A stretch of 64,000 nucleotides of DNA from positions 1-64,000 of IMG/VR virus record IMGVR_UViG_3300007177_000352. One strand, written 5' to 3'. This document shows, piece after piece, positions 14,777-62,200 of this stretch. The position numbers were made by a program, and so were the translations under genes. The DNA comes from a virus (lineage: Duplodnaviria > Caudoviricetes). How positions within the stretch are numbered: position 1 is the stretch's first letter; each line of letters begins with the position of its first letter. The notes beneath the pieces are model-generated. The model searched no databases. It worked only from the letters and a program-made list of their open reading frames with translations, and was not told the DNA's origin.

Positions 14777-14905
14777 GTTGAGAAAATTTGCGAAAATTTT
14801 TCGCAACCTTTCGCAGGTTGACAAAAGTTTTCACTATCTGCTATTATTTTACACAAGTTGAGAAAAGTTTTCTCAACCTGCTAAAATTATTGCATACGAA
14901 ATTTT
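14777..14905. promoter_or_regulatory. parC-like centromere/operator with embedded parMR promoter
   Basis: clustered GTTGAGAAAA/TTTTCTCAAC and TTGCGAAAA/TTTTCGCAA inverted repeats; TTGACA (14818)-18 bp-TATTAT; directly upstream of actin-like ATPase. Confidence 0.65.
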
Positions 14906-14943
14906 TAAAGTCAAGAAACGACACAAAAAAGAGGAAAAACATA

Positions 14944-31458: not shown

Positions 31459-31964
31459 TTAAGCATCCTTACTTGAAAGGAGTGGTTTACGTCGCCGCTC
31501 CTTTGGCCTAACCCACACCCGGGCCATTTGACTCTTAGTCTTCTTAATGGCAGGCATGGCTTCTATCTTCCTAATCCAACCTCTGTCACTTAAAATCCGT
31601 GCCAAAAGATGTTTATCCGGTCTCCTAGTTGATAGGTCATTGGGATAAAACCTTTCTAGGAATGATTGAGTGACAATCTCTTCTGGTGACTCAGTAGAGA
31701 GGTATTCATTGAGAGTCTTTTCTATCTCATTACGCCGAGGGTTAATCCATTTTGGATTAGGTTGGTTACTCCACACCCATCCTCCAGGTGAGTTATATTT
31801 GCAATAACCTCGGTCCTTGAGGACGTGTGATAGCAGGTGTTTATCACCCCGCGGTGGATTAGGGCCCAGCACGTCCTCACTGGTAAAGAGGTCAGCGGAC
31901 GGGTTAATGGTAAGGTATTTTAGAAACTGAGTTTCTATATGTCTCGTCCTGATTTCGTTACTCA
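31459..31964 (-). CDS. protein with two tandem winged-helix-like repeats resembling VapE/primase C-terminal domains
   Basis: DKHLLSHVLKDRGYCK and DKHLLARILSDRGWIRK...RVWVRP; likely start MSNEI. Confidence 0.55.
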
Positions 31965-33226
31965 TTTGGCATCCTCTGTAGATAGGCATTTAAAGTAACT
32001 CGCGCAATACCTGACAGCTTTTGCATTTCAGATATGTTGCCGTTGCAAACACGATGCAATGCGGTAATGTATTGCATCATCAATTGATTCTGGAATTGTT
32101 CCATCACGGTGGCTTTGTTCGGAATAGAGTTAAATCTTAGAACAAAACCAGTGTCAGTCGCCTCCTTATCCACCTCCACCGTCTCGGCTGGCGTAACATC
32201 CATATCGTCACTGCCATTCAGCATGTCTTTTACTAGCTTGACACTCACCTCACCCTCCTCCTTAAAAATCGCAATCCGTTGGCAAACTTGTTTCAACTCA
32301 CGGACGTTGCCAGGCCAATTTAGACCGGTCAAGTAGTCCACCGCCTTTTCGCTGAATTGCACTCCCGTTAGGAACGTCTTTAGGAGTAACGGAATATCCT
32401 CTCTTCTCGTGCGCAACGAAGGCACTTCAATGGTGAATCCATTGAGTCTATAGTAAAGGTCTTCCCTGAATTTACGTTCCCTGACTAGTTGCTTTAGTGA
32501 GTGGTGAGTCGCGCAAATAACACGCGCACTGGTATGCTGTGCCTTAGTATCGCCCACTTTGACGTAAGTACCGTTTTCAAGTACCCTTAGCAACTGGGCC
32601 TGGCATTGCATTGGCATGTCACCCACCTCGTCCAAAAATAGGGTGCCGCCATTGGCCTCCTCAAATAACCCAATCTTATTTCTGTCTGCCCCCGTGAAGG
32701 CGCCCTTGACATGACCAAAGAGTTCTGAATTAAGAAGCTCCGCCGTGAAGCCGGCGCAGTTTATTTTCACAAACTCACCTTGACGGCCTGACAGGCTATG
32801 CAGGTCGGTTGCAACTAATTCTTTACCTACCCCCGTTTCCCCATGAATGTACACTGGGATTGCATGGGGGGCGAGCTTCGCAATGACCTTTTTTAAGTCG
32901 TTAATGGGCTTGGATTCGCCAATGATGCAACTGGTGATTTTTAATCCCAAAGCACGCTTGAGGTCGTCCACCGTGAATGGATTGACCAGCGGGGTGAGGT
33001 TTTGTTGACGGTGGTAGTTTGCCTTTTCTGATGTGCAAATGATTATCCCCTCCGTCGGCGCGAAGCTCTCGTCAACTATCTGTATATCCGCCTCCCCAGT
33101 AAACTCGTCAAATTGACGGAAGGAGGTGATGGCCATCGTGTGGTATCCCAACGATTTGGCAGCTTTTTCTAATGATACCGCTAAATCCTGCGAAGGTGTT
33201 GCTATTAATATTGTCTGCTTTTTCAT
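31958..33226 (-). CDS. sigma54-dependent enhancer-binding protein (NtrC-like AAA+ with Fis-type HTH)
   Basis: Walker [22 protein letters not shown] (intact GAFTGA), [26 protein letters not shown]-terminal [17 protein letters not shown]; degenerate receiver-like N-terminus. Confidence 0.95.
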
Positions 33227-33777: not shown

Positions 33778-34299
33778 TTACACTCCTCCCCTTTCTATCC
33801 ACCGACCCAATAACCAGAGTAAATCAGATAGCCTATTTAGGTATTGAATAACCAGTGGACTGACATACTCACCAGTGTCTTTTAACGCAACCGCGGTACG
33901 TTCCACCCGACGGCATACCGTCCTAGCTACCTCCAAAAAAGCTACGTCCACTCGGTCGCCAGGTATCGCCCAATCGTACTCACCTTTATTCAACTGGTAT
34001 CTACTCCGTAGGTTTTCTAAACTGGGGAGTAATTGGTTTTCAGTCAAGAGAGCGTGAATCTTGCATTTGCTATCGGGCGACGCTAGGGAGGAGCCGATGT
34101 TAAATAGCTGGCTTTGCAGTGTCTTTAAAAGAGTAAAGACCTCACTCTTAGATTTGTTGAATGCCCTTGCCACTCCTAAGTTTGCAACCAGTTCGTCTAT
34201 CTCACCAGTCACCTGTATTCTTAGGTCGGCCTTTGATACACGACCGGGCCCTATAAGTCCTGTTTGCCCATTGTCACCATCACGGGTTGTTATACTCAT
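33778..34299 (-). CDS. pduO: ATP:cob(I)alamin adenosyltransferase, PduO/MMAB type
   Basis: ITTRDGDNGQTGL, RVSKAD.RI...GEIDEL, LQSQLFNIGSSLA, ARTVCRRVER, YLNRLSDLLW; GAGG SD before ATG 34299. Confidence 0.92.
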   Translation of the reverse strand: MSITTRDGDNGQTGLIGPGRVSKADLRIQVTGEIDELVANLGVARAFNKSKSEVFTLLKTLQSQLFNIGSSLASPDSKCKIHALLTENQLLPSLENLRSRYQLNKGEYDWAIPGDRVDVAFLEVARTVCRRVERTAVALKDTGEYVSPLVIQYLNRLSDLLWLLGRWIERGGV

Positions 34300-34411
34300 A
34301 CTCGCCTCTAATAAAAGAACCTTGAAATTGATAAATATGTAGTCCAAACCATCAATCATCAATCTAACCAACCCCGCTAGTTTATAAGACTAGCGGGGTT
34401 TTTTATTGGGA

Positions 34412-36403
34412 TTAGCTAATCACACCACATACGCCGTTGTCACAATTATCGGTGCCAGCATCGCGGTCAAAGCCTTGACTAGCACTAAACCGTTCCCAAT
34501 CAATGGGCTTGAGTTTAGTTGAGTAGGCATTAAACACCGCTTCGCTGACCGGGGTCTGTGGCAAGTATAATCCGGGGGTGACATTCTTTAGGTCAAACCG
34601 CGGCATAAACGCCGTCCCTACATACGAATCCCAATTCTTGTGTAACCAGTCGGCTATTGAAGGTATCTCGTCAGGGAGGTACGTTATTGTGCAACTGGCA
34701 TTCGTGTCGCACCAATTGTCCATCATCCGCCGATAGTTTTCTAACTGGTCAAGGGCACCGTGTCTCTCCACCTCCACCCCGTCGCTATCCATTCGCCACT
34801 TGAAGTTTGGATTATCCCATTTGATAGGGAAGTTGATTAGCACGTTGCCGGGTGTCAAGGGATTGGGCTTGACCTCGTAGCCGTGCGATTCTAAGAGAGA
34901 GACCACAGGGTCGTCGCTGTTAAAATTCTGGTAGTTAAAGATGTGCTTCGCCAGTGGGTGATGTAATCCCTCACTCACCCCCGCGGCTTTGCCAGCTGTG
35001 CCATCGGGCTTGACCGTGGTGACGTAATAGGGGAGAGGTAGGCCCAACTCTCTGGCCATTGAGTGCGCACCGTGAGTCGCCGCCGCCCGAAGTCGCCGCC
35101 ATTGTGCCTGCGTAAGTCCACTCTCGGCCACGCCCATGACGCCCAGACCTACCAGACGGAAGTGTTGATTGTTGCGGTGCCAACGTTCACTTAATACACC
35201 GTCTTTTAGGTCAACGCACGTTTGTACATACGCCGCCCGTGCTAAATAGTATGCAGTGTCAAATAACTCAGTCAGGTTATGCCATGCCGACTGGGCGACA
35301 TTTAAGACCACTTGGTTGCATAACCCACCATTGACCAATGGCTGTTCACCGCACGGGTTTATCACGATAGCGTCTTCAAAACGAGACCGTAACGCTTCAG
35401 TATTGCAGATACCTGGATCACCACTGTCTCCATTTTCTAGGATTGTTTGCATAAGCTCATGGAGTGTGGATAAGCTAGGCCGCGTCTCAAATAGCACCGT
35501 GTTGTTAGTCATCCCCCGCCACATCTTGTTAACCTCCCAGAATTTACGCTTGACACTCATAAACTGGTCGATGTCACGATGGGTATTGGATAGCATCACC
35601 AAGCCAGCGGAACGCCGACTTGATAGGGTCTCGCCGGTTAAGGCAAATATGTCCAGGAGGTCTATGACGGATAACGCACGACCTACCCTGCTATTTAAGA
35701 TATGGGCAATTATCTCAAAGGAACGCGCTATCTTTTCGTCCCCACTGGTTCGCCAGCCATAGCCGCTAGTCACCTGTCCCTTGCCGCGGATTTCTGAAAA
35801 ATCTAAGACCAGTTTTTTGGCAATGACATTCCTGCCCTCATACTCATGGGCCACTAGCTTCCCCAATGCCTTCGCCCATGCCACTGCACTGTCGCCTACC
35901 TTGATTGTCCACACGCCGTCGGTCAAGGTCTCCTCATTTTTGGGATTGCCTTTCTCAACACGATTTGAATGGATAACCTGTATCTCTGGAATTGGTTGTG
36001 CGAAGCCAAACAGGCAACCACTCTGGGGACGAATGGATACCCCGCAACCTTGCAATAGCAACCAATAGGCGTCTACCACATCATAGACCGTCTCGTACTG
36101 CAAGCCGGCGCAATTAAATGATGTGACCTCCACCTCACGGGATTTTTCAGTGTCACCCATCCATTTGACCCGGCCTGCTAAAAAGCCCCGCCGTTCCATT
36201 TGAATTTGATGCAAGATGGTCAACTCGCGTTCCTCTGCTACGTTCAAAGGACGGCCTAGTTGACGCTCCCGTAGCCATCTTTGATGACGGCCTACCCTAT
36301 GGTAAATATCCTTCCTGGATTCCAGTTGACCATTGGGGAGTACACGGGCGTATTTTTGCAATTCCGTTACCATTGCCCTGACTTCTTTCGAGTCCATTAG
36401 CAT
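34412..36403 (-). CDS. nrdJ: class II (adenosylcobalamin-dependent) ribonucleotide reductase, monomeric RTPR type
   Basis: SFNC, NPCGEQPL (thiyl Cys), LCNQ, TTVKPDGT, C-terminal CDNGVC pair; no beta subunit or activase nearby. Confidence 0.88.
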   Translation of the reverse strand: MLMDSKEVRAMVTELQKYARVLPNGQLESRKDIYHRVGRHQRWLRERQLGRPLNVAEERELTILHQIQMERRGFLAGRVKWMGDTEKSREVEVTSFNCAGLQYETVYDVVDAYWLLLQGCGVSIRPQSGCLFGFAQPIPEIQVIHSNRVEKGNPKNEETLTDGVWTIKVGDSAVAWAKALGKLVAHEYEGRNVIAKKLVLDFSEIRGKGQVTSGYGWRTSGDEKIARSFEIIAHILNSRVGRALSVIDLLDIFALTGETLSSRRSAGLVMLSNTHRDIDQFMSVKRKFWEVNKMWRGMTNNTVLFETRPSLSTLHELMQTILENGDSGDPGICNTEALRSRFEDAIVINPCGEQPLVNGGLCNQVVLNVAQSAWHNLTELFDTAYYLARAAYVQTCVDLKDGVLSERWHRNNQHFRLVGLGVMGVAESGLTQAQWRRLRAAATHGAHSMARELGLPLPYYVTTVKPDGTAGKAAGVSEGLHHPLAKHIFNYQNFNSDDPVVSLLESHGYEVKPNPLTPGNVLINFPIKWDNPNFKWRMDSDGVEVERHGALDQLENYRRMMDNWCDTNASCTITYLPDEIPSIADWLHKNWDSYVGTAFMPRFDLKNVTPGLYLPQTPVSEAVFNAYSTKLKPIDWERFSASQGFDRDAGTDNCDNGVCGVIS

Positions 36404-37404: not shown

Positions 37405-37433
37405 TTGACAATTGATTTGGTATCAAATATACT
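37405..37433 (+). promoter_or_regulatory. near-consensus sigma70 promoter of dnaN
   Basis: TTGACA (37405-37410), 17 bp, TATACT (37428-37433). Confidence 0.8.
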
Positions 37434-37473
37434 ATCAATAATAGTAAAAATTACCTCACCTATAAACCATCTT

Positions 37474-38637
37474 ATGAATTTAGAATTAACTAAAAAAGAG
37501 CTTCTTTCCCCTCTAAAGACCGCAGCTTCCGTTATAGAAGACCGCCGGGCCGGCATGACAGTACTCGGTAATATTCTTTTGCAGGCCGACGGCAAACAAC
37601 TAAACTTAACGGGCGGTGATGGCGACATTGAGGTGACTTGCAACCTCCCTATTGAGACCAGCGCCACCTTTGCCATCACTGTTCCTAAAAAGCTATTAGA
37701 CATTACACGGTCGGTGAATGACGGCGGTGACTTGCATATTTCAGATAAAGACGATAAGCTAATTATAAAGTCTGGCAAAAGCCGCTTTACCTTGGCCACC
37801 TTGCCTGCCGACAATTACCCAGCCAGCCCGGTGTTAGAGGTCAATAAACAACTGACTCTCCCTCAATCGGAATTGAAGTCACTGATAAAACAATGTGCAT
37901 TTTGCATAGCCTCCAACGACATACGCTATTATCTAAACGGCGCGTTATTAGAAATAAATGATGGCGAAGCATACATGGTTGCCACCGACGGCCACCGTAT
38001 GGCAGTGACACCATTGGAATTGTTAGTCAGTCCAGTGGCGACCGCTGTGCCTACGAAAAAAACTAAGAAGTCTGCGGCTACCGAGGCCACCGATTCGGAT
38101 AATGCTAAAATCATTATCCCCCGTAAAGCCATCTATGAGTTACTCAAGTTACTCGGTGATGACGGGGACGTGCAAATAAGCTACACTGATAGTCACGTCC
38201 AATTTATTCTAGGGGACTCGCTTCGTTTAACGAGTAAGCTAATTGACGGGCAGTTCCCCGACTGGCGAAGCGTAATTCCCGCCAATGCAACTAACATTGC
38301 CCGTGTGTCTAAGGCCGACCTCTATTCAGCCATAGGCCGTGTAACTCTACTCTCTAACGAGAAATACAAAGGAGTGCGACTGACACTCTCTAAAGACCTC
38401 TTGACGGTTAATGCGAAAAATCCTAATCAAGAGGAGGCGACGGAAGAATTAGAGGTGATATATGAAGGCGAGCCTCTTGAAATTGGCTTTAACGGCGCCT
38501 ATCTACTAGAATCAATAGCGGCTGTGAATACCGCTGATGTGCAACTGGCATTCACAGATAGTAACTCCTCTGTGGTGATTACTCAAAATGAAGACGAGGC
38601 AGAAGGCAAGTGGATTATTATGCCAATGAGGTTGTAG
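37474..38637 (+). CDS. dnaN: DNA polymerase III beta sliding clamp
   Basis: LGNILLQA, DIRYYLNGALLE, VATDGHRMA, IIPRKA, SKLIDGQFPDWRSVIP, LSNEKYKGVRL, NPNQEEA, IGFNGAYL, IIMPMRL; start moved to ATG 37474 because the ORF-track TTG is the -35 box. Confidence 0.95.
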   Translation: MNLELTKKELLSPLKTAASVIEDRRAGMTVLGNILLQADGKQLNLTGGDGDIEVTCNLPIETSATFAITVPKKLLDITRSVNDGGDLHISDKDDKLIIKSGKSRFTLATLPADNYPASPVLEVNKQLTLPQSELKSLIKQCAFCIASNDIRYYLNGALLEINDGEAYMVATDGHRMAVTPLELLVSPVATAVPTKKTKKSAATEATDSDNAKIIIPRKAIYELLKLLGDDGDVQISYTDSHVQFILGDSLRLTSKLIDGQFPDWRSVIPANATNIARVSKADLYSAIGRVTLLSNEKYKGVRLTLSKDLLTVNAKNPNQEEATEELEVIYEGEPLEIGFNGAYLLESIAAVNTADVQLAFTDSNSSVVITQNEDEAEGKWIIMPMRL

Positions 38638-38746: not shown

Positions 38747-39103
38747 ATGGGTAACAGAGCACAATACACTAAAGAAGAGATAAAGGAACGTATTGAAGGC
38801 ACTTTTGGAATAGTTGCGCAATTAGCTAAGAAACTAGACGTATCCTGTGTCACGGTCTATAATTACCTAAACCAATATCCTGAGTTAAGGGACGACTTAA
38901 AACAAGAGCGTGAACGTACTAAAGATTATGTAGAAATAGAGTTCATTCGCCTGATAAAAGAAGGTAATACCAAAGCCATTTTACAGGCAGCTAAGACGCT
39001 ATTAAAGGACCGTGGCTATGGCTACACTTTTGAACAGGCCAGTACGCAACCTAACAACCACCTCTTAGACCTCCTTTCTGAAAGAATTGAACAAGGTAGC
39101 TAG
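38747..39103 (+). CDS. terminase small subunit-like HTH protein
   Basis: GIVAQLAKKLDVSCVTVYNYL HTH; IKEGNTKAI...KDRGY; first gene of operon ending in TerL. Confidence 0.7.
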   Translation: MGNRAQYTKEEIKERIEGTFGIVAQLAKKLDVSCVTVYNYLNQYPELRDDLKQERERTKDYVEIEFIRLIKEGNTKAILQAAKTLLKDRGYGYTFEQASTQPNNHLLDLLSERIEQGS

Positions 39104-39109
39104 TTTATT

Positions 39110-39901
39110 ATGCCTAAATACAATCAAGATAAACGCAATGCTAATCGCGGTACTGAGAGAGGACGTGAGTTACTCAAACAGTCCTTATCACGTCTCGGTC
39201 CTGGTCGTTCAATATTAGTGGATAAACACGGTACGGCTATAGCAGGCAATAAGACCTTAGCAGAAGCTACCTCTCAAGGTATCCCGACTGTGGAAGTGGA
39301 GACCGATGGTAAGACCTTAGTGGTAGTGAAAAGGACGGACTTAGATTTGGATACCGACATCAAGGCACGGGAGTTAGCTTTTGCCGATAACCGCGTGGCG
39401 GAACTTGATTTGGATTGGGATACGGAGGTTTTGAAGACTGACTTGGAGGTGCTTGATACTGACTTTCTTAACAACCTCTGGACGCCGGAGGATTTTTCAT
39501 TGGCAAATGATGAGGATAAGATGACAGGTGAAGAAGACGACCAATCCAATTACAGTCGTTCAGTCAAGTCACCCACCTATGTAGTCACTGGTGAAAAACC
39601 AAAATTAACTGACCTCTTTGATAACTCAGTAACGACGCGACTGATTAGCAACATCAATCAATCCAACCTCCCAGAGGACGAAAAGGAGTTTCTAAGAATA
39701 GCCGCGCAACGCCATACGGTATTGCATTTTGGAAACATAGCCGAGTATTATGCCCATGCCAACGAGGAGCTACAGACACTTATGGAGGATAATGCACTCG
39801 TCATTATTGACTTTAATAAAGCGATTGAGTTAGGTCTCGTTAAGATAACTAAGCAGATAGCCGAGATAACTAAAGAGGAATATGGTGATGACGACGTATA
39901 A
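39110..39901 (+). CDS. ParB-N-like domain fused to the conserved partner domain of phage glycosyltransferase loci
   Basis: GRSILVDK...IAGNKT, FADNRVAEL; C-terminal SPTY..TGEKP...AAQRH...IAEYYAHA...ALVIIDFNKAI. Confidence 0.75.
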   Translation: MPKYNQDKRNANRGTERGRELLKQSLSRLGPGRSILVDKHGTAIAGNKTLAEATSQGIPTVEVETDGKTLVVVKRTDLDLDTDIKARELAFADNRVAELDLDWDTEVLKTDLEVLDTDFLNNLWTPEDFSLANDEDKMTGEEDDQSNYSRSVKSPTYVVTGEKPKLTDLFDNSVTTRLISNINQSNLPEDEKEFLRIAAQRHTVLHFGNIAEYYAHANEELQTLMEDNALVIIDFNKAIELGLVKITKQIAEITKEEYGDDDV

Positions 39902-40760
39902 ATTCGCGGTGTTTATTCTCGTCCACGGACGACCTGATAGAGTGGTTACTTACCACACCTTAAAGAAGCAAGGCTACACTGGTGACATTTACTTGATTGC
40001 CGATAATGAGGATAAAACCGTCCCGCAGTATAAGGAAAAATTTGGGGAGGATAAAATCATTATCTTTGATAAGTTAGCGATGGCGCAACGGATTGATACT
40101 GGTGATAACTCTCAAGAAAGACGAGCCGCCGTCTTCGCACGGAATGCCTGCTTTGATATTGCAAGAAACTTAGGGATTGATTATTTTCTTCAATTGGATG
40201 ATGACTATAATGGATTTTATTATACTTTTACAGGCGACCTAAAGTATCATCAAAAACCGGTTAAATATAGCCTTGATAGGTTATTCCAATCAGTTTTGGA
40301 ATATTACATTAGTATAGATGCACTTACTATTGCTTTTGCCCAAGGTGGTGATTTAATCGGAGGTAAAAACAATAACATGATGGGTGCTATTAAAATTAAG
40401 CGTAAAGCTATGAATACTTTCTTTTGTAGTATTCATCGTCCTTTTGAGTTCACCATGCGCGTCAATGATGATGTTAATGCTTATATCCGTTATGGCAACC
40501 GTGGTAAGCTAATATTTACTCTTTATAATTTAATTATAAAACAACCAGCCACCCAAAAAGTTAAAGGTGGCATGACGGAACTTTACCAAAATGAGGGGAC
40601 TTATCCAAAATCTTTCTCTACCGTAATGATTGCGCCATCTTGTACCAAAATTGCAATGATGGGTGATAAGCATCCTCGTATTCACCATCAAATCAACTGG
40701 GGTAACGCCGTCCCCTGCATTCTTGACGAAAAGTACAGAAAACGAAGCCACCATGCCTAA
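39882..40760 (+). CDS. GREB1/TAGT-like (GT-A fold) glycosyltransferase
   Basis: VFILVHGRPD, ARNACF, FLQLDDDY (DxD), RVNDDVN, YPKSF...PS, RIHHQINW; alternative start 39888. Confidence 0.7.
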   Translation: MVMTTYKFAVFILVHGRPDRVVTYHTLKKQGYTGDIYLIADNEDKTVPQYKEKFGEDKIIIFDKLAMAQRIDTGDNSQERRAAVFARNACFDIARNLGIDYFLQLDDDYNGFYYTFTGDLKYHQKPVKYSLDRLFQSVLEYYISIDALTIAFAQGGDLIGGKNNNMMGAIKIKRKAMNTFFCSIHRPFEFTMRVNDDVNAYIRYGNRGKLIFTLYNLIIKQPATQKVKGGMTELYQNEGTYPKSFSTVMIAPSCTKIAMMGDKHPRIHHQINWGNAVPCILDEKYRKRSHHA

Positions 40761-41361
40761 ATACAATCAAGATAAACGCAATGCTAATCGCGGTACTGAG
40801 AGAGGACGTGAGTTACTCAAACAGTCCTTATCACGTCTCGGTCCTGGTCGTTCAATATTAGTGGATAAACACGGTACGGCTATAGCAGGCAATAAGACCT
40901 TAGCGGAAGCTACCTCTCAAGGTATCCCAACGGTGGAAGTAGAGACAGATGGTAAGACCTTAGTGGTAGTGAAAAGGACGGACTTAGATTTAGAGACCGA
41001 CATCAAGGCACGGGAGTTAGCTTTTGCCGATAACCGCGTGGCGGAACTTGATTTGGATTGGGATACGGAGGTTTTGAAGACTGATTTGGAGGTTCTTGAT
41101 ACTGACTTTCTTAACGAAATGTTTAAGATTGATGTTATTGGTGATACAACATCAAATTTACCTACAGCAGACTTTACCAATTGGAAAGCTATACAACAAC
41201 AGTCTTTAACAAAAAGAGTTTTAATTGGTGAGATTGAATTTGGAATAAGTGAAGAGCAGTATAACTCTTTCCTAGAGTTACTTGAAGTTAAACTAAAGAC
41301 AATTAATAGCCAAAGGTTGGCAGCACAAGAGGTATTTAATGATGCGTTTTGCAGTGATTGA
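40753..41361 (+). CDS. ParB-N-like protein, copy 2, with distinct C-terminal domain
   Basis: first 121 aa nearly identical to 39110 protein; start at ATG 40753. Confidence 0.8.
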   Translation: MPKYNQDKRNANRGTERGRELLKQSLSRLGPGRSILVDKHGTAIAGNKTLAEATSQGIPTVEVETDGKTLVVVKRTDLDLETDIKARELAFADNRVAELDLDWDTEVLKTDLEVLDTDFLNEMFKIDVIGDTTSNLPTADFTNWKAIQQQSLTKRVLIGEIEFGISEEQYNSFLELLEVKLKTINSQRLAAQEVFNDAFCSD

Positions 41362-42637
41362 TGCACTAGGTAAAGATATTGACCCTCGATTTGATGGCAT
41401 GGCTGTTAAATATTTAAATTGGGAACTTAATAGATTAGGTGCTAATGTTGTTAAACTACCGCAATTAGCAGATATTATATTAATCAGTACAGTATCTGCT
41501 GGTGAGTGGCATGTTGTTCCATCGTGTATAAAAAAGCATAGTATTGATAGACTGAGGCAAAAAATCATACTGGGTGGTCAAGCATCATTATCTCCAAAAG
41601 TTTTTGAAGATTATGTTGATATTATATGTGTTGGCGAAGGTCGAGTTTTTTTAGAGACATTGGTGAAGCAAGGGTTTGATACAGCAAGAAATTTACCAAA
41701 TAGTTGGGTTAAGGGTGATACAAGAGAGGTAATTCCTGATTATAATTTTCCTTATGATATTCCTCCAATTAAATGTATGGATGGTTTAACTAGGATATTT
41801 GCATCTCGCGGGTGCAGGAAAAAATGTTTATTTTGTCAAGTAGGCTGGGAACGTGAATATTCTGAAAATAGTTTTGAAAACGTATCATCTTTAGATAAAG
41901 AGTTATCTATGGTTGGTCATCGTGTCAATTATGTAAGCAATGATTTATGTGGTTTAAGCTATTTTGATAAAATAAATCATTACCGGCACTTTTCAGGAAG
42001 TTTTAATCATCTTAAAACCGTTATTGAAACTATTGGGATGAAAAAAATAGTTCAAAAACTAGGTACTATGTATGGTTCAATTCGTATTGGTGTTGAATCA
42101 GTAAGCGAACGATTGAGGAGGTTTATAGGCAAACCGATTAATAGTAGAGACTTATTAGATATTACATGCAACTTCCTTAATGCCGGTATTAAGTTTAAAT
42201 GGTTTATGATTTGTGGATTACCTGGTGAGACTGATGATGATTATGAAGAATTAAAAATGTATATTAGTTACATAAAAAAGAACGTAAATAAAGGTATGTT
42301 ACACATAAGTTTTACATCTTTTTTGCCCAATTCACCCTGTCCTCTTTGCATTCCACCATTAGAAGACTCTTATCAAGATAGAGTAAATAGTTTCTATGAT
42401 TGGTTTTTTGATGGTGCCGGCTATACTAGAAAGGTAAGAATATTAAAAGGATGTGAACCAAAATCCAGATTATTACAGTCAATAGGATATATGGGTTGTT
42501 CTGAAGATGATTTGCGTAGAGGTTGGCTATATGATGACCCACCTAACTGGCGTGTTAGGTATACCTACCGTGACAAAATACGCCGTGCCTATAACGTTTA
42601 TGCCAAAAAAGTTGGACTACCTATAGGGAAAGATTAA
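41339..42637 (+). CDS. radical SAM protein with N-terminal B12-binding-like domain
   Basis: IILGG...DIICVGEG, SRGCRKKCLFC (CxxxCxxC), IGVES, FMICGLPGETDDD. Confidence 0.85.
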   Translation: MMRFAVIDALGKDIDPRFDGMAVKYLNWELNRLGANVVKLPQLADIILISTVSAGEWHVVPSCIKKHSIDRLRQKIILGGQASLSPKVFEDYVDIICVGEGRVFLETLVKQGFDTARNLPNSWVKGDTREVIPDYNFPYDIPPIKCMDGLTRIFASRGCRKKCLFCQVGWEREYSENSFENVSSLDKELSMVGHRVNYVSNDLCGLSYFDKINHYRHFSGSFNHLKTVIETIGMKKIVQKLGTMYGSIRIGVESVSERLRRFIGKPINSRDLLDITCNFLNAGIKFKWFMICGLPGETDDDYEELKMYISYIKKNVNKGMLHISFTSFLPNSPCPLCIPPLEDSYQDRVNSFYDWFFDGAGYTRKVRILKGCEPKSRLLQSIGYMGCSEDDLRRGWLYDDPPNWRVRYTYRDKIRRAYNVYAKKVGLPIGKD

Positions 42638-43167
42638 TGCCCAAACTAACCGATTACACACCTGACCATCATAATGCGAACCTTGGTACCGACAGGGGCC
42701 GTAAAGAGCTTGCTAAATCTGTTAAACAACTTGGTTTAGGTCGGTCAATCCTGACGGATAAAGACGGACGTATTATCGCTGGCAACAAGACTTATGAAGC
42801 GGCGGTTCAAGAGGGTATTTCCAAAGTAGTGGAAGTGGAGACCGACGGTGATACCCTAGTTGTCGTCAAGCGAAATGACCTGGATTTAAATGAGCACATC
42901 AAAGCGCGTGTCCTTGCCCATGCAGACAATAAGATTGGACAGGATAACTTGAACTTTGACTTAGCTATCGTCAAGGCCGACCTAGAATTACTGCAAAGCG
43001 ATTTTCTGGACGAGCTTTGGACGCCAGATGACCTTGGGGAATTATTTGAGGAGGATAATGTCAATCATATTGACCCGCAGCAAATGCACACCAAAGAAAT
43101 TAATCCAAATGAATTTGAATTTGAATGCCGTTGCCCAAAGTGTGGCTTTGAATTTAATCCCAAATGA
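42637..43167 (+). CDS. ParB-N-like protein, copy 3, with C-terminal CPKC
   Basis: NANLGTDRG, GRSILTDK...IAGNKT, HADNK; ends CRCPKCGFEF. Confidence 0.8.
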   Translation: MPKLTDYTPDHHNANLGTDRGRKELAKSVKQLGLGRSILTDKDGRIIAGNKTYEAAVQEGISKVVEVETDGDTLVVVKRNDLDLNEHIKARVLAHADNKIGQDNLNFDLAIVKADLELLQSDFLDELWTPDDLGELFEEDNVNHIDPQQMHTKEINPNEFEFECRCPKCGFEFNPK

Positions 43168-44201
43168 ACAAACATGCTTGGTTTCTCACTGACTTAAAAA
43201 CTATACCATCCAACGGTTTAAAAGTGATGTCAACTTTTGCTTGTGGTGGCGGGTCATCTATGGGTTATAAATTAGCTGGGTGTGAGGTGATAGCGGCTAA
43301 CGATATTGATGCAGAAATGGCTTATCATTACAAATTAAATCTACATCCACAATATTATTTCTTATGCCCAATTCGTGACTTATTGACCAAACAATTACCT
43401 AAAGAATTGTTTAACTTAGATATATTAGACGGCAGTCCACCTTGTTCAACTTTTAGCATGTCTGGTAAACGAGAAAAAGTATGGGGGAAAAATAAACGCT
43501 TTAGAGAAGGTCAAGCTAAACAGGTTTTATCTGATTTATTTTTTGACTATCTTGACTTAGCTGAATATCTAAAACCTAAAGTAGTTATAGCAGAAAACGT
43601 CAAAGGACTGATTTTGGGCAATGCCAAAGGTTATGCAAAGTTGATAATGATGCGGTTTAAAGAAATAGGCTATAAACCTCAGTTATTTTTAGTCAATGCG
43701 GCGGATTGCGGTGTTCCTCAAACTAGAGAAAGGGTCTTTTTTTGCGCATTAAGAAATGATATTAATATGCCCCCCTTAGAACTATCTCCTACTTGTAAAT
43801 GGGTAAGCGTTGGTGAAGCAACTAGCGATTTACAGGTTTTGACCGATAATGAAATACGCAATACACAAGCAAGTCCAATGGATTTAAAATATTGGAAACT
43901 CGTAAAAAAAGGACAAGTTTATAATACATTTATAAAAAAACATGAAAAAAGAATATGTGGCTTTAATTATTGTAAATTAGATGATGCAAAACCAAGCCGC
44001 ACAATGTCGGCACATCCCTCCTCACTTAAACATTGGTCAACTTGTCGTAATTTAACTTACCGTGAATGGAAAAGAGTAGGTTCTTTTCCAGATGATTATC
44101 AAGCCAAAAATGATAATATTGGTAAATATATGATAGGTATGTCCGTACCGCCATTAATGACCAAAGCGGTGGCTGATGCTGTCATAAAACAGTGGCTTTG
44201 A
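43164..44201 (+). CDS. C5-cytosine DNA methyltransferase
   Basis: motif I FACGGG, IV GSPPC, VI ENVKG, VIII PQTRERVFF, X GMSVPP. Confidence 0.92.
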   Translation: MNKHAWFLTDLKTIPSNGLKVMSTFACGGGSSMGYKLAGCEVIAANDIDAEMAYHYKLNLHPQYYFLCPIRDLLTKQLPKELFNLDILDGSPPCSTFSMSGKREKVWGKNKRFREGQAKQVLSDLFFDYLDLAEYLKPKVVIAENVKGLILGNAKGYAKLIMMRFKEIGYKPQLFLVNAADCGVPQTRERVFFCALRNDINMPPLELSPTCKWVSVGEATSDLQVLTDNEIRNTQASPMDLKYWKLVKKGQVYNTFIKKHEKRICGFNYCKLDDAKPSRTMSAHPSSLKHWSTCRNLTYREWKRVGSFPDDYQAKNDNIGKYMIGMSVPPLMTKAVADAVIKQWL

Positions 44202-44298
44202 AAATCTACCACCCAACGCGGGTAACTCTTAGAGTGGTCTGATGTCCAATCAGCGCCGGCGGTGCAACTCCGACCTACCCGCTCCAATTTTAAATAAC

Positions 44299-45588
44299 AT
44301 GTGGCAAATTCCAACGGCTGGTACAAAACACCATAATTCCATTAAACAAGCCGACGCCAGGTTAAACCTCTGGGTCGGCTCGGTTCGTTCTGGTAAGACC
44401 ATCACCTCCTTATTTACCTTGATTAACTGGATAATAAAAAAGGAGTCGCCACCCGGTCCCATCGTCATCACTGGCAACACCAGCGACACTACCAATCGCA
44501 ACGTCCTCCTCCCCTTAATGGAATATCTAGGAGGCGAACCATTCTGTGATTTTTCCATAGGTCGTCGCACTGGCACCCTCTTTAATCGCACGGTCCACAT
44601 CGTCTCCGGCAATGACGAGTCTAGTTACAAACGCCTCCAAGGCGCCACCTTCGCTGGTGCCTACTGTGACGAAATCACCACCTATCCAAAATCATTCTGG
44701 TTAATGCTACTCAGTCGCCTTTCCTTAAAAGGGTCGCGGCTCTTTGGCACCACTAACCCGGACGTCCCGACCCACTGGCTAAAGACTGACTTCATAGACA
44801 ACCCAGAAATCACTAATAAACGAGTCTTCCAATTCAGTCTCCATGATAATCCGTACCTTGACCCGGACTATATCCACTCCTTAGAAACAGAATACTCCGG
44901 CGTCTGGAAAAAGCGATACATTGACGGTCTATGGGTAGCTGGTAGCGGGGCGATTTACGATTGCTTTGGAGAGGGCAACATCATAGCTAACAGCAAACAG
45001 TATCTAAACCGTTGCCAACGGGTGTGGGCGGGGTGTGACTACGGTACGGTCAACGCACTGGCTTTTGGAATCTATGGATTAGACTATGATGGCGTTACCA
45101 TCTATAAGTTTGCAGAATACTACTATGATTCCAAAGTCGCTGGAGTCCAAAAAAGTGACAGTGAGTACGTCCTAGACATTCAGTCCTTTTTAGCTACCCA
45201 CTTAGGTGGGCGACCCTTGACTGGTTTATATGTTGACCCGTCGGCGGCTTCTTTTATAGTGTCCCTGCGTAAAGCTGGCTTACCAGTGATAGCGGCCAAT
45301 AACTCGGTGCTAGAAGGGATTCAACACGTCTATGGATTATTATCCAGGCGACACTATCTCATAGATGCCACTTGTGAAAACACCGTGAAGCAATACTATT
45401 CCTACTCATGGGATAGCAAGGCGTCGGCGCGTGGTAAAGAACAACCTATGAAAGTAGAAGACCACGCTTTGGATTGTGACCGGTATGCTTTGTTTAGCAC
45501 CCGGTCAAGTAGCACCTTGCCTACGGAAGGGATTGTGACTCTCCCGATGCAAGGTCTAAGTGGTGGGATTAAGACGCGGAGGAGGTAG
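44299..45588 (+). CDS. terminase large subunit
   Basis: Walker A GSVRSGKT, Walker B YCDE, GTTNP, nuclease GCDYG, YVDPSAASF, DHALDCDRY; start uncertain (44242 or 44299). Confidence 0.92.
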   Translation: MWQIPTAGTKHHNSIKQADARLNLWVGSVRSGKTITSLFTLINWIIKKESPPGPIVITGNTSDTTNRNVLLPLMEYLGGEPFCDFSIGRRTGTLFNRTVHIVSGNDESSYKRLQGATFAGAYCDEITTYPKSFWLMLLSRLSLKGSRLFGTTNPDVPTHWLKTDFIDNPEITNKRVFQFSLHDNPYLDPDYIHSLETEYSGVWKKRYIDGLWVAGSGAIYDCFGEGNIIANSKQYLNRCQRVWAGCDYGTVNALAFGIYGLDYDGVTIYKFAEYYYDSKVAGVQKSDSEYVLDIQSFLATHLGGRPLTGLYVDPSAASFIVSLRKAGLPVIAANNSVLEGIQHVYGLLSRRHYLIDATCENTVKQYYSYSWDSKASARGKEQPMKVEDHALDCDRYALFSTRSSSTLPTEGIVTLPMQGLSGGIKTRRR

Positions 45589-56274: not shown

Positions 56275-59200
56275 TTACTTACGAATCTGCACTGGTCCTG
56301 CAGTTTGTTTAATCGCTCTCGTAATGGGTTGTCCTACCGTAATCTCTAAATTATTAACAGCACCTACAACCTGCTGCCGTTGTTGTTCTAGTAGTCTATT
56401 ATTATAGCGGACTTCTTCAATCAAAGTCAATAACAACTCCTCCATGCGTTTGCTATCACCACCTCTACTTGTTTGTGAAGCCTCGTTGACATTGACACGA
56501 ATGCCATAGTTTCTGAGGATTTCAGAAGATTGTGGGTCAACAATAATCTCCTTTTGGTGAATTTTCGCCGTCATATCCGCCGGGACAGAAGGTGTCCCTA
56601 CGTCATAACTGGGCAAATTTTCACCATCATCACTCATGTTGACATCACTCGTGTTGATACCTACAGGCGGTGCTTCTATGGAAACAACACTGGAAGTCTT
56701 TGCCATGGAAGCGGCAGAGGACAAAACTTCACTAGCGATTGAACCAAATGATTCTGCAATACTAGGAACAACATTCTGAATGGTTTCCAGTATTTCGGCA
56801 TGATAAGTGGCAGCCAGTTGTTGGTCAGCAATCCGGCGGACGATAAAATCATTTTCCGCTTGTTTTTCCTTTTCATCCTGTGCTTTTTTCAGATTTATCG
56901 CTTCCAGCTTTTCATCGCCAATTCTCTTTAAATCCTCCTCCCGCCATGTTGCTAGAGTTATGTCACGTATTGTCTCGCGCATATCTCTGTTTGCAGCGGC
57001 CATTAAATCCTCCTCACGCCACACCGTATGCCTGGCCAAATCCTCCTCACGCCACACCGTATGCCTGGCCAAATCCTCCTCCCGCCATGTTAAGAGTCTA
57101 GCCACTTCATCCTCTGCCGCTTTTCTATCCGTCGCCCGCCATGCTAAGAGTCTTTCTTTTTCCTGGGCACGTAATTTTTCTGTCGCTTCCTTGTCCGCCG
57201 TCCGTAATTTCTCGTTCAGTGCCCCTTCTTTATCCCATCGGCCTTTCCAAAAATTTTGCCACTCACTGGAAAGGTTAGTCAGTTTGATTATAATATCCTT
57301 GGCCCCACTAGATGACACATTAGAGATTGACAATGAATTTGCCCCACCTCCTGCTTGCAACACATCAGCCTTCCCCATGTCACCAGCTTTTTGCTGTGGT
57401 GACAACTGCGACATAAGACCTGGGCCTTGACTAACTCCACTCGTGACAGGAGACGCCGCTGGTAGGTAGCTAAACAAGCTAGGCATTTCTTTAGTCTCCC
57501 TAGACAGGCCGCCTGTTAATTTCCCGAAGTCCAGTTTAGGTAACTCAGTTTTTGTAGTCGCCAGTTTGCTATTGAGGCCATCTAATTCACCTTTGAGAGA
57601 AGACACACCAATAAGACTCTTACGCAACTCCTCTAAGGAGGCTTTAGCATTTTGAAAGTCGGCGTAGGTGTCTATTTTAATATCTACTCCCTTTGTTTGC
57701 ATCATAGACAAAGTATTGCGTTTATCCAATGCAGTATAAACCTCCGACTCGCTACGGCCTTGATTAATTGTGGCGCCTTTTAGCTGTTTAAGAGATTCAC
57801 CCAGTCCATTGACTATCAAACTAAGTTCACGATATTTAGCAAGGTCTTCTGCCGGCTTGGTCCCTTGTTGCGATTGAAAAGCAGTTAGTAATTCCTTATT
57901 CGTCTGCAAATAACCATCCTTAAATTGCGGCCAGAAACTCGCCCAGTCGGTGTCCTTACGATTCACTAATATTTGACTAACAAGATTAGATATGGATTGC
58001 GAAAAATCCTCCTTAACACCCATATCTTGCATCATCTTAGTAATGCCGGCCATATCCACTGACCCACTATATTGCCCGGACTTATCACGCGCACTGGTAA
58101 CATAACCACCGACTTTGGTGATAAACTCATCAAAGGAGGTAGTTAGGTTAGCTTTGGTAGCTATCTCTCTGTATTGTGAAAATGCAGTGAGTGCATTGTC
58201 AATAGCGGTTTGATTATCTTTAAAACCACCTTCTTTTTTAGTTACCTCCTTTTTAATATTTTCACCCTTGACAGCACCAATCAACTCATACAACGGTCCC
58301 GTGATATTGCGTTGCATAGCCTCGTCAAGTCTTTCTGCAACGATTAACTGATTCTCCGGTGACAACTGACTCATTAAGGCGTCAATATTCGTCTTTAGAC
58401 TACTCTTTAACCCGGCATCCATAGCAATGACATAATTGCCCAATTGCACAAGTTGACCCACCGACGCTTGTTGTAAAGCCGTGACGTTATTAGCAAAGTC
58501 AGTGTCATCAAAGGTCTTTTCGCTGGCCGCTTGCAACTGAGATTCAATACCACCGAGGCTGGTATTGAGTGATTGTAACTCAGCCTTAGCCAACTCCCGT
58601 AGCTTATTGCCTTCCGCTTCGGTATTTGCCTTGTTATCTGCTATCGCTTTTTCAGTGTCGGCCTTGGTACTCTCAATGAGTTTATCCGTGTCTGCTTTAG
58701 TATTCTCAATGAGTTTATCCGTGTCCGTCTTTTGCGTTTCAATAAGGTTAGTAAAATTCTCCTTTTCCTTTTCTATCATTGCACTGAATTGGTCATCTGG
58801 CATGGGGGTCGCCGCCGGACTGGTCAACTGAGTCGCAATATCTAGGCCCATAGAAGTGAGTAAGCTATTGACGCCTTGCAATTTCTCCATAGCCGCTTGC
58901 TGTAGCGGAAGGAGGTTAGCTATGTTTTTAGCCGTCTCAGTCTTATCTAAAGGGAGTTCCTTAGCTATCTTATCCGCTTCCGCTTCTGCAACACCTTTGA
59001 GGTCACTGATATTGCTATTCACATCATTAAAGATGTTAGTGTAATCCTCACTGGACGCATAATAACCTTGTGCCTCTTTGAGATAACCTTGTGCCTTGGC
59101 CGTGACTTGACCCATAGCCTCCACGTCCCCCGATTTAGCTAATCGTAAGGTCTCCTCATACTGACGCCGTGCCTCTGTTAATCGTTGCGTTGGATTATAT

Positions 59201-62200
59201 GTGGTCAACTCGCCCAATTTAAGGTCGTCTAAGAAGCCTTTTAGTTGTTTAGAGAAGTCTATCAACTTATTATAGTGGTCAAGCTGTTTCGCTTCAGCCT
59301 CCTTTTGCTTCTCGAACCGTTGATTCTCAAGGTCAATTTGTTCTTGCAATGACTCCAAAATGAGACCTTTATAGGTCTCCAATTTCTTGACACTTTCCTC
59401 CGTGACTGGCATATTGCTACTTATTGAACCTTGCATAGCATTCAACTTCTCAATAGCCGTGGTGCCGGGCAAAGACATATCCTTTGCCAATTTTTCCATA
59501 TCAGATTTCACGGCGTCCTGTAAAGAAGCCACCGCGTCCTTAACCTTGGTTAAAGTCTCCTGTAACTTCTTAGCCGCCTCTTGAATCTTCTCAAGGTGCT
59601 TGATTTTAGTATCGCGTTCCGTTTCCAGAGACTTGATAACGTCGTCCCGTGCCTTTTCAGCAGCCTTAATTTTCTCGTCCCGTTCCTTTTCCAGTCGCTT
59701 GATAGTCTCATCTTGAGTCTTTTCTAGTTGTTTAGTGACGGCCTCATTGGCTTTATCAAGGTCGGCCAATTGTTCTCGCAGTGCCTCCCCAATTCCTTTT
59801 CTATACTCTTCACCTAACTTAACGAGCTTCTCCCCGTCTGCTATGGCTTGCTTGTTATTCTCTTGACCTTGCTTCAAGATAGCAATATTAGCTTCACTGA
59901 TAGCTAATAGGGACTGACTTGATTGTTGCAACGCGCTGGCCGACACACCTTGCAATTGCGTGGTGTCTATTTCAGCTACCTTGCCTATTGCAGTGCGTGA
60001 CCCGGTATCTTTAGCCATAGAGGACTGGAAGGTTGCAATGGCATTGGCAAACTCACCACTGGTTTTTTCCTTTAAGGCAGTCTTCTTACCTCCCTTGCCT
60101 AATTCAGCATCCAGGGCCGTAATATCGTCTGCAATAGAATTCATTATTCCAGTAACACTCTCTTTAAGTTTCGTAAAGCCTGCGATAATCTCATCGTGAG
60201 TCTTTAACACCGCGTCCTTTTCTTTCGTCACGGCATCTATTCTGAACTTAGACTCCTCCATAAGAAGTTTACGATATTTCTCTATATTAGCAATCGCCTT
60301 TTCAGATTCTTTCGCACTGTCTTTATCAATCTCTTTGGCCAGGTCAATACCTTTGAAGTCATTAAGACTCTTTTGCAAAGATTGCATTTGCGCATTGCGC
60401 CGGGCGGCGACGGCATTCTCATCTTGAGTATCAAATGACTGAATATCAGAAGCTATGGATTCAGAAACAGCACCGAGTTTGTCTGCTAATTTACCAAAGA
60501 CATCAAAGAATTTATCCACCTGCTTCATGAGGTCGGCTTGTACCTTTTCCGCTTCCTGTTTCGCCTTTTCCGCGGCCTCGTCAGCTTGCTTTTGCGCTTC
60601 CTCCTGGGCCTTCTTTTGTTCCTCCTCAATACTACTTTCCCTAGCCTTCATAGCCTCCACATAAGACTTGGAGTTATTGATAAACTCGTCCACTGATAGC
60701 CCAGCTTGTTTTGCCATAGCTTCCAACTGGTCGGCATTCATTCTGGATAACGACCCTGCGACAGCTTGTGAAGTGGACCCTAGGCCACCTAGCTTGCTTG
60801 TGAGATTAGGCACCGTCTTAGACAGGTTAGAGAGTGTGTAATCATAGTCAGTCATTGATGACGCCATTTTATCCATTTCACCGCGGAATCCGTTTAAAGA
60901 ATCCGTAATCGCTTTAGCCTCCTCTGCCATGCTTTGTAAAGCCGACACATAACCACCGATGTCACTAACAAAGTCGTCAGTGGACACACCTAACGATTTG
61001 GCCATTTCAACAACCCGCGCCGGGTCCATAGATGCAAATTGAGAAGCAACCTCCTCGGCAGTTTTACCTGACAGACCCATCGAACTGATTAGGTTAGGAT
61101 ACTTGCTACCAAGTTGATTGACGGTATATTCAGAATCTTTCATACCACTGGTGAGCTTCTTAAAGCCGTCTTGCATCCCTTGTACAGACTGAATAGCGGC
61201 CTTGGTCTCCGCTTCTTGAGAAGCCAGTGTATTGATATACGTAGTAGCATTCTCTAAGAACTGGTCGGTGGTGACCTTGCTTGTTTTAGCCAACTCCTCT
61301 AATTTTGCATCATCTAAAGAGGCTAGTTGATTAGCTACGTCTTTAGAATTAGTCCCCAGTCCTTTTAAACTGTCAATCAGTGACGGGAACTTAGAAGTCA
61401 GGTTATTCAGTGTCAACTCACTTTCAGATAGCGTGCCACCTAACTTGGTCATCTCAGTTCTAAAAGAGGATAACTGTTCGGCTTTAGCTTTGGTCTCCTC
61501 CGCTTGTGCAGTCAGGACGCCGGTATACGCCTCCACATCACCCATGAATGCTTCTACACTCACGCCTAACGATTTGGCCATATCTGCAATTTGCTGACTA
61601 CTCATAGAATCAAATTGTTTCGCTACATCCTGCGCAGTCACGCCAGCCTTAAAGAGTGTGTCACTGAGACTTGGGTATTGTTTCTTAAGACGTTCCAACG
61701 TCGCTTCATTATCAGTCATACCAGTCGCCATTTGGTGCATCTTATCTTTGAATGAACCAATTTGACCTTGCAATTCCTTAACGGCGCCTAGATAAGCAAG
61801 AGTGGCTTCTTTAGCCTCCTCTGGTGCTATCTTATTAGCTTCGGCCCAGGCAAGCATATCGTTATCCGTCATTCCTTGAATAGCGGTAGCGGCTTCCGTC
61901 ACATTGAGTCCTAAAGCATTCGTTGCTAGGTTTAAGTCAGGATACTTTTTAGCTAAATCATCTATCGTCTTTTCAGCACCTTGTAACGGATTGATAAGCT
62001 CTGCTAAACCAGTTCGCAAATCTTTAAACACTTGACCGCTAGGGAGTGCGTTGGCAAACGCTTGTATATCCTCTTTCAACTTATCCGTGGTCACATCTAA
62101 AGAAGCGGCCATTGACTCTAAGTCAGCTTCGGATAGATTAGCAAACTGACCCGCGGCCTGTTCGGCAGTTAGTCCACTCTTTAAGATTTGAGAAGACAGT

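Follow-up and report, generated by a model that had tools for sequence, protein, structure and literature searches.

A candidate ParB-dependent DNA-modification module based on a virus-dominated radical SAM family

We identified a radical S-adenosylmethionine (SAM) enzyme, designated rSAM, and an upstream ParB-like protein, designated ParB2, in a virus of the class Caudoviricetes (IMG/VR record IMGVR_UViG_3300007177_000352). Our preferred reading, to which we assign a probability of roughly 60%, is that the two proteins form a self-contained, two-gene, ParB-dependent DNA-modification module. The DNA analyzed, referred to below as the window, comprised the first 64 kb of this 83,384-bp record, which was estimated to be 91% complete. 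The rSAM gene (41339-42637, + strand) codes for 432 amino acids with a Pfam Radical_SAM domain and an MgmA-like predicted fold, and a first-pass annotation had proposed it as a cobalamin-type radical SAM enzyme and a candidate DNA base modifier. DNA was considered the probable substrate because of the ParB partner, the DNA-acting enzymes of the sister modules (one of them a bona fide DNA methylase) and the adjacency to terminase genes.

A viral enzyme family and its ParB-like partner

The rSAM open reading frame (ORF) starts with ATG and is preceded, at a distance of 7-8 nucleotides, by an AGAGG Shine-Dalgarno sequence. The protein matched Pfam Radical_SAM (PF04055; E 1.2e-12, 48.7 bits versus a cut-off of 29.5) and, weakly, Radical_SAM_N2 (0.0027). 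A multiple alignment of 52 family sequences showed that the three Cys residues of the CxxxCxxC motif (C159-x3-C163-x2-C166) are invariant, as are G79-G80 and G99-E100-G101 in the N-terminal Rossmann-like domain, so that the CxxxCxxC core and the GG...GEG segment noticed in the first-pass annotation proved to be features of the whole family. C97 and D8 were nearly invariant. Since C97 was the only conserved Cys beyond the CxxxCxxC motif, rSAM has a single cluster site and lacks the Cys triad of an auxiliary cluster. The helical C-terminal cap contains two motifs specific for the family, LRRGW (392-396) and NWRV (403-406). The rSAM gene is real and conserved, and a chance motif is excluded. All NCBIfam matches were to radical SAM families with a B12-binding domain (TIGR04013, TIGR04014, TIGR03960, the PhpK family, HpnJ and others), with scores of 15-44 bits versus cut-offs of 251-750, and the protein belongs to none of these curated families. 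For example, TIGR04013 scored 43.5 bits (cut-off 251), TIGR04014, the MgmA family, 38.8 bits (E 4.9e-10, cut-off 360) and TIGR03960 33.2 bits (cut-off 462).

Approximately 80 proteins, nearly all of them metagenomic, matched rSAM at E <1e-67, and the next match was at 1e-16. When a family profile was searched against 1.8 billion cluster representatives, 117 matches were found at E <=1e-30 and 2,726 at E <=1e-10, and the nearest ESM-Atlas clusters were 84-100% viral. The family is virus-dominated; its members occurred in 5 of approximately 185,000 species genomes, all of which were metagenome-assembled genomes (MAGs) or single-cell assemblies, including those of Smithella and Eubacteriales. No close homolog was present in 50,697 phage records searched with tblastn, which yielded one weak match (22% identity) in a Microcystis phage. 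As rSAM also matched no PHROG and had no close homolog in deposited phage records, the family escaped annotation.

We further examined the genomic context of this family in IMG/VR, where a scan with the single sequence gave no matches and an alignment-based scan gave 49 loci, plus others. Profiles built for rSAM and for the protein encoded upstream were run against all six frames of these loci. A full-length ParB-like gene of one type was located directly upstream of the rSAM gene, and ended at or overlapped its start, in all 45 loci that had upstream sequence (three additional loci, cut at a contig end, are not counted among the 45). One representative of each of two more distant tiers of the profile search was located just upstream of packaging genes: one (P0298) followed a 201-amino acid protein with a weak Pfam ParB_N match and preceded a DUF5681 gene and a further 381-amino acid gene, and the other (P0261) followed an overlapping 228-amino acid protein and had a portal gene within a few genes downstream. 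No ParB-rSAM fusion was found in a search for longer forms or among proteins of similar length. The genes downstream of rSAM usually coded for the small (TerS) and large (TerL) terminase subunits. Because these terminases belong to several unrelated families, the ParB-rSAM pair moves between phage lineages as a unit; it is a mobile unit that settles in front of packaging genes. In two relatives of the window phage (L001 and L004), a single module was arranged as clamp-TerS-ParB-rSAM-TerL. In four loci (L007, L009, L026 and L033), N6/N4 or C5 methylases fused or adjacent to ParB occurred beside rSAM. When the genes downstream of rSAM in other phages were scanned with Pfam and PHROG, no hypermodification enzymes were found.

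ParB2 (40753-41361, + strand, 202 amino acids; PHROG 620 ParB-like, 1.3e-11) overlaps the start of the rSAM gene by 23 nucleotides and is its cognate partner in the window. We took the ATG at 40753 as the true start, instead of the GTG at 40663 in the ORF list, because the aligned homologs in L002 and L004 begin at that residue. A profile of the rSAM-linked upstream proteins matched the Spo0J/ParB N-terminal CTPase-fold domain (1e-12) over residues ~3-152 only, and no helix-turn-helix (HTH) domain matched this profile. Pfam ParB_N was reached by 11 of 27 rSAM-linked ParBs, and the ParBs of the window missed it and were detected by PHROG 620 only. A conserved C-terminal motif, S/T-P-W-D/E ... 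G-x-I-x ... Y-x-x-F, was present in the rSAM-linked ParBs, and the C-terminal part of ParB2 matched these proteins only.

A similar organization has been reported for a single subclass, 5mYOX clade C1, of the phage T-dioxygenases, whose activity in vivo requires a cognate ParB; in these ParBs, a nucleotide-binding domain is joined to a C-terminal domain, and there is no domain for DNA binding (PMC13229309). Both systems combine a phage catalytic gene with a cognate, partner-specific ParB that has no HTH. In the T-dioxygenases, however, the catalytic partner is an Fe(II)/2-oxoglutarate dioxygenase with proven activity, whereas rSAM is known here from its sequence. A second parallel is provided by phage DNA methyltransferases fused or adjacent to ParB (PHROG 498), in which the ParB-CTPase fold, often as a fusion, accompanies a SAM-using enzyme, frequently near the terminase (PMC12704722). 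Unlike rSAM, these methyltransferases are conventional SN2 enzymes (N6/N4 or C5), and many of them are ParB fusions.

Three ParB-enzyme pairs between the terminase genes

The ParB2-rSAM pair lies within a slot bounded upstream by TerS (38747-39103, + strand; PHROG 309, 4.2e-6) and downstream by TerL (44242-45588, + strand; Pfam Terminase_6N 9.9e-17; PHROG 2, 2.8e-41); a sliding clamp gene (37405-38637, + strand) precedes TerS. Upstream of the pair are ParB1 (39110-39901, + strand, 263 amino acids; PHROG 620, 1.5e-22) and its partner, a TAGT-family glycosyltransferase (39882-40760, + strand, 292 amino acids; Pfam TAGT 2.2e-34; PHROG 842, 1.9e-69). Downstream are ParB3 (42637-43167, + strand, 176 amino acids; PHROG 620, 7.8e-20) and a C5-cytosine DNA methyltransferase (43164-44201, + strand, 345 amino acids; Pfam DNA_methylase 1.1e-47; TIGR00675 dcm 1.6e-36). 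Short overlaps join successive genes from ParB1 through the C5-methylase, and the three ParB-enzyme pairs are likely co-transcribed. The placement of rSAM among sister cassettes with DNA-modifying enzymes, on which the first-pass annotation had drawn, was thus borne out.

Comparison of the three ParBs revealed that the N-terminal 124 amino acids of ParB1 and ParB2 are 96.8% identical and that the remainders are unrelated. The C-terminal part of ParB1 resembles proteins located upstream of TAGT in other phages. The N-terminal domain of ParB3 is approximately 50% identical to those of ParB1 and ParB2. Judged from the sequences, this pattern of a common DNA- or nucleoside triphosphate (NTP)-handling domain joined to a partner-specific C-terminus is what would be expected of an adaptor. 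At the DNA level, the shared ParB domain is encoded by a 372-bp direct repeat (39110-39481 and 40753-41124; 357/372 nucleotides identical), which looks like a recent duplication or gene conversion and could serve as a recombination handle for swapping enzyme modules.

The first-pass annotation had suggested that rSAM, the methylase and the glycosyltransferase might belong to a single pathway. The distribution of the three enzymes did not favor this idea. TAGT was absent from all 20 larger rSAM-bearing virus records, and the C5-methylase was present in 4 of these 20 and in one of the seven among them that were at least 90% complete. Conversely, the TAGT family is large (3,125 proteins at E <=1e-10 and at least 568 loci in IMG/VR), and in 83 of the 89 loci examined (L059-L147) TAGT was immediately preceded by a gene of the ParB1 type; no rSAM or C5-methylase homolog was found within 6 kb in any of these 89 loci. 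For the C5-methylase, IMG/VR contained a single close relative, in L148, which is immediately preceded by a weak ParB3-like match (E 8.6e-7) and followed by TerL. ParB-TAGT, ParB-rSAM and ParB-C5-methylase are therefore parallel, independently mobile modules stacked in one operon; because each pair occurs alone in other phages, and TAGT and rSAM never co-occur there, a shared pathway is not indicated.

Several observations concern the slot and the TAGT family in their own right. ParB-TAGT is a very common stand-alone two-gene module located before phage terminase genes. Cultured phages of E. coli, Salmonella and Nocardia encode homologs (45-51% identity) that are annotated as hypothetical, and further matches at E <=1e-30 were found in Lactobacillus, Vibrio and Haloarcula records. 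Pfam Tet_JBP, a model used here without a positive control, matched in none of the 32 larger TAGT-bearing records, and the acceptor of a 'TET-associated' glycosyltransferase in ParB-TAGT phages that lack a Pfam TET match is puzzling. A related phage (L002:4622-8353) has five extra genes between ParB-rSAM and TerL, coding for a PAPS-reductase-like protein and four proteins with no assigned function, and these genes may add another modification cassette to the slot.

The presence of TAGT and the C5-methylase beside rSAM also bears on the possibility that rSAM is an oxygen-independent counterpart of TET/5mYOX. Such an enzyme would take a hydrogen atom off the C5-methyl group of thymine or 5-methylcytosine (5mC) and hydroxylate this group, using water-derived oxygen, to yield 5-hydroxymethyluracil (5hmU) or 5-hydroxymethylcytosine (5hmC); in this phage, the neighboring C5-methylase would supply 5mC and TAGT would then glycosylate the 5hmU or 5hmC made by rSAM. 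BchE, a class-B radical SAM enzyme, stands in for an O2-dependent oxidase in anaerobes, and some of the host MAGs are anaerobic, e.g., Smithella and a Eubacteriales genome; however, the NCBIfam matches showed no particular similarity of rSAM to BchE. In addition, rSAM holds the same ParB-partnered, terminase-adjacent position as the ParB-dependent 5mYOX (PMC13229309). Neither Tet_JBP (PF12851) nor a thymidylate-synthase-like hydroxymethylase (PF00303) was detected in the 83-kb record, which leaves TAGT with no recognized source of hydroxymethyl-pyrimidine, and Tet_JBP was found in none of 42 rSAM-bearing records. These TET absences are weak evidence, as no positive control accompanied the Tet_JBP search and many phage 5mYOX escape Tet_JBP annotation (PMC13229309). 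TAGT itself is evidently independent of rSAM, given the ParB-TAGT pairs that stand alone in other phages and the TAGT records that have no Tet_JBP match, and it was never seen in the 20 rSAM records mentioned above. Moreover, the genes after rSAM are nearly always terminases rather than kinases or transferases of the kind that commonly decorates 5hmU or 5hmC, so that a one-step terminal mark fits better than a 5hmU-like intermediate. We consider a TET-like hydroxylase unlikely.

Predicted fold, cofactor and substrate

The AlphaFold2 model of rSAM had a mean pLDDT of 95.6 and a pTM of 0.91; in it, residues 1-117 form an N-terminal alpha/beta domain, which is followed by a partial TIM barrel and the helical C-terminal cap. 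In an exhaustive structural search, with which Foldseek agreed, the top match was cobalamin-bound MgmA (9ccb; Z 23.8, 352 residues, root-mean-square deviation (rmsd) 3.6, 19% identity), and MgmA was also the best PDB sequence match of the family profile (3e-10). MgmA is a cobalamin-dependent radical SAM glutamine C-methyltransferase of methyl-coenzyme M reductase (MCR), and its crystal structure shows cobalamin held in the Rossmann domain (PMC11796369). The next matches were AprD4 (Z 18.6) together with MiaB and RimO (Z 18-18.6 for the three), and the cobalamin enzymes TsrM, OxsB, CysS and TokK followed at Z 12.7-16.6. The barrel aligned to many radical SAM structures (Z 8-24). When the N-terminal domain alone (residues 1-115) was compared, corrinoid-binding domains (1y80, 4jgi and 4r3u) were found at Z 7-7.5, with rmsd of 2.7-3.1 over approximately 105 residues. 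The predicted structure therefore supports a class-B-like (cobalamin-type) radical SAM architecture, in agreement with the earlier description of rSAM as a cobalamin-type enzyme. A methylthiotransferase of the MiaB/RimO/MtaB type was rejected as an identity for rSAM because the second, N-terminal Cys triad is absent, in spite of the Z scores of 18-18.6.

In size and in its three parts (N-terminal Rossmann domain, partial TIM barrel with CxxxCxxC, small C-terminal domain), rSAM resembles MgmA, also known as QCMT (TIGR04014). MgmA, however, is archaeal and modifies a protein, whereas the rSAM family is viral, ParB-linked and terminase-adjacent and has its own LRRGW and NWRV motifs. The nearest cellular relatives of rSAM are TIGR03960/YgiQ-like B12-binding radical SAM proteins (Radical_SAM_N2 plus Radical_SAM; E 1e-4 to 1e-9, TM 0.85 in the Atlas), which contain the same type of N-terminal domain but are larger (540-850 amino acids), cellular and of no assigned function.

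Most characterized class-B enzymes, MgmA included, are C-methyltransferases that act on unactivated carbon. We propose that ParB2, with its ParB/CTPase-fold domain and rSAM-specific C-terminal domain, recruits or activates rSAM on replicated phage DNA, a role modeled on that of the ParB of the ParB-dependent phage T-dioxygenases. The enzyme would reductively cleave SAM at its single [4Fe-4S] cluster and remove a hydrogen atom from a DNA base that is flipped out, and a methyl group from methylcobalamin in the N-terminal Rossmann domain would most likely then be transferred to this base. The product would be a C-alkylated base other than 5mC, N6-methyladenine or N4-methylcytosine and would shield the packaged genome from host nucleases. 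The rSAM product is likely to differ from those of the adjoining methylases because the adjoining modules already supply 5mC (in the window) or N6/N4 methylation (in L007). We infer the mechanism as a whole, including the DNA substrate, the ParB activator, the use of cobalamin and the methyl transfer; C-methylation or alkylation of a DNA base is the specific chemistry that we favor, although we hold it to be less likely than not. That a phage radical SAM enzyme can act on DNA bases after replication has a precedent in the radical SAM enzymes of thymidine hypermodification (phage M6/ViI type; PMC8989533). These enzymes had no detectable sequence relationship to rSAM (tblastn, 50,697 phage records), and they work within multi-enzyme 5hmU pathways, whereas rSAM is alone with ParB.

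Several points weigh against a cobalamin-dependent, DNA-modifying rSAM. We know of no cobalamin-dependent radical SAM enzyme that acts on DNA, and the closest structural relative, MgmA, modifies a protein. Pfam B12-binding (PF02310) gave no match to rSAM. The same two-domain layout is found in AprD4, MiaB and RimO, which do not use cobalamin and score near some B12 enzymes; because cobalamin-free enzymes share this layout, the model makes cobalamin use no more than plausible. The ParB2 of the window has GNKT in the nucleotide-binding motif, where most homologs have GHxR. Finally, we infer the activity of rSAM, its cobalamin binding and its action on DNA from sequence, predicted structure and context. 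With regard to the nucleotide-binding motif, the relatives of ParB2 in L002 and L004 also contain GNKT, and GHxR is present in most rSAM-linked ParBs.

The cofactor points lead to the alternative that rSAM is independent of cobalamin, like AprD4, or remodels an NTP or deoxynucleoside triphosphate, like OxsB or viperin, possibly one that is bound by ParB. The Z scores of AprD4 (18.6, no cobalamin) and OxsB (15.5, acting on deoxyadenosine phosphates) and the unmatched Pfam B12-binding domain are consistent with this, as is the binding of CTP, ATP or GTP by ParB-fold domains (PMC12704722). Nevertheless, cobalamin-bound MgmA clearly led the matches, with AprD4 trailing it by 5 Z units. The GG and GEG segments, invariant in the alignment, agree with a Rossmann domain of the B12 type, and every NCBIfam match was to a B12-binding radical SAM family. 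In addition, the phage itself uses cobalamin: the window contains genes for a PduO-type cobalamin adenosyltransferase (33778-34371, - strand; Pfam Cob_adeno_trans 5.9e-43) and a class II B12-dependent ribonucleotide reductase (34412-36403, - strand; Ribonuc_red_lgC 5.2e-10, RNR-II_ins_dom 4.4e-5), and the phage therefore counts on host cobalamin. With terminase adjacency and DNA-acting sister modules arguing for DNA, we regard a cobalamin-free or nucleotide-remodeling enzyme as quite unlikely. Beside the cobalamin genes is a sigma-54-dependent transcriptional activator (31958-33226, - strand), which is unusual phage cargo.

Radical SAM maturases often adjoin the gene of their substrate. rSAM could accordingly be a protein C-methylase similar to MgmA that acts on the upstream ParB, as a precursor-like substrate, or on a packaging protein. 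MgmA, the best fold match, methylates a glutamine of MCR and has a large peptide-binding cleft (PMC11796369), and the conserved C-terminal ParB motif (S/T-P-W-D/E ... G-x-I) is exclusive to rSAM-linked ParBs. However, the identity to MgmA is only 19%, and TIGR04014 scored far below its cut-off (38.8 versus 360 bits). In addition, a ParB N-terminal domain with 97% identity to that of ParB2 pairs with TAGT and one with 50% identity pairs with a C5 DNA methylase; because related ParB domains pair with these other enzymes, the role of ParB appears to be general rather than substrate-like. A ParB is also known to activate a DNA dioxygenase (PMC13229309). A protein-modifying rSAM is the least likely of the alternatives considered here.

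We therefore favor the ParB-dependent DNA-modification module. As for the first-pass proposal of a DNA base modifier, DNA as the substrate gained support from context (ParB in 45/45 loci, terminase adjacency and the T-dioxygenase precedent, PMC13229309), while the modification itself stays at the level of a proposal.

Relation to known systems and significance

Other features of the window and of the loci examined can be noted briefly. A distant phage radical SAM protein of 845-866 amino acids (Radical_SAM_N2 plus Radical_SAM, TIGR03960-like) was found in L048-L052 (e.g., L048:6659-9767), where it is located directly after a gene of the uracil-DNA glycosylase (UDG) superfamily, between sliding-clamp and clamp-loader genes and without ParB; this protein may represent a further radical SAM system directed at DNA. 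In the window, an FtsK/SpoIIIE-like ATPase (12071-14122, - strand) and a 451-amino acid protein with a weak actin/MreB-like C-terminal match (14788-16143) are beside lysis and capsid genes, and an ORF of more than 2,570 amino acids (56275-63999, - strand) runs past the window end.

Each element is known on its own: the radical SAM superfamily, the class-B architecture and the assistance of phage DNA modification by ParB. What appears to be new is their combination, in which a class-B-like radical SAM family dominated by viruses has a dedicated and obligate ParB adaptor. We found no description of a class-B-like radical SAM enzyme with a dedicated ParB in the searchable literature, which did not cover Iyer et al. 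2013 (NAR 41:7635), and full-text searches for radical SAM combined with ParB, TET, TAGT or terminase gave nothing relevant. Radical SAM enzymes are unmentioned in both PMC13229309 and PMC12704722, and the word 'radical' is absent from the main text of the former.

There is a realistic chance that rSAM represents new DNA chemistry. In its most far-reaching form, which we regard as possible but short of an even chance, rSAM would be the first example of a radical SAM enzyme that depends on cobalamin and has DNA as its substrate, a ParB-loaded alkylase or hydroxylase that writes an undescribed C-modified base before packaging, and ParB-enzyme pairs would be a general plug-in system. The base in question may be a 5-ethyl-pyrimidine, a C-methylated purine or anaerobically made 5hmU or 5hmC, and a common ParB clamp domain may carry interchangeable glycosyltransferase, methylase, dioxygenase and radical SAM enzymes.

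The three stacked ParB-enzyme modules make the window a natural experiment, in which partner specificity is directly testable because two of the ParBs are near-identical at the N-terminus and different at the C-terminus. ParB-assisted phage DNA modification was shown experimentally only recently, for dioxygenases; a radical SAM partner would, if true, extend the ParB principle to oxygen-independent radical chemistry. The ParB-rSAM module could also bring to light a new natural base in DNA and a new way for phages to escape restriction.

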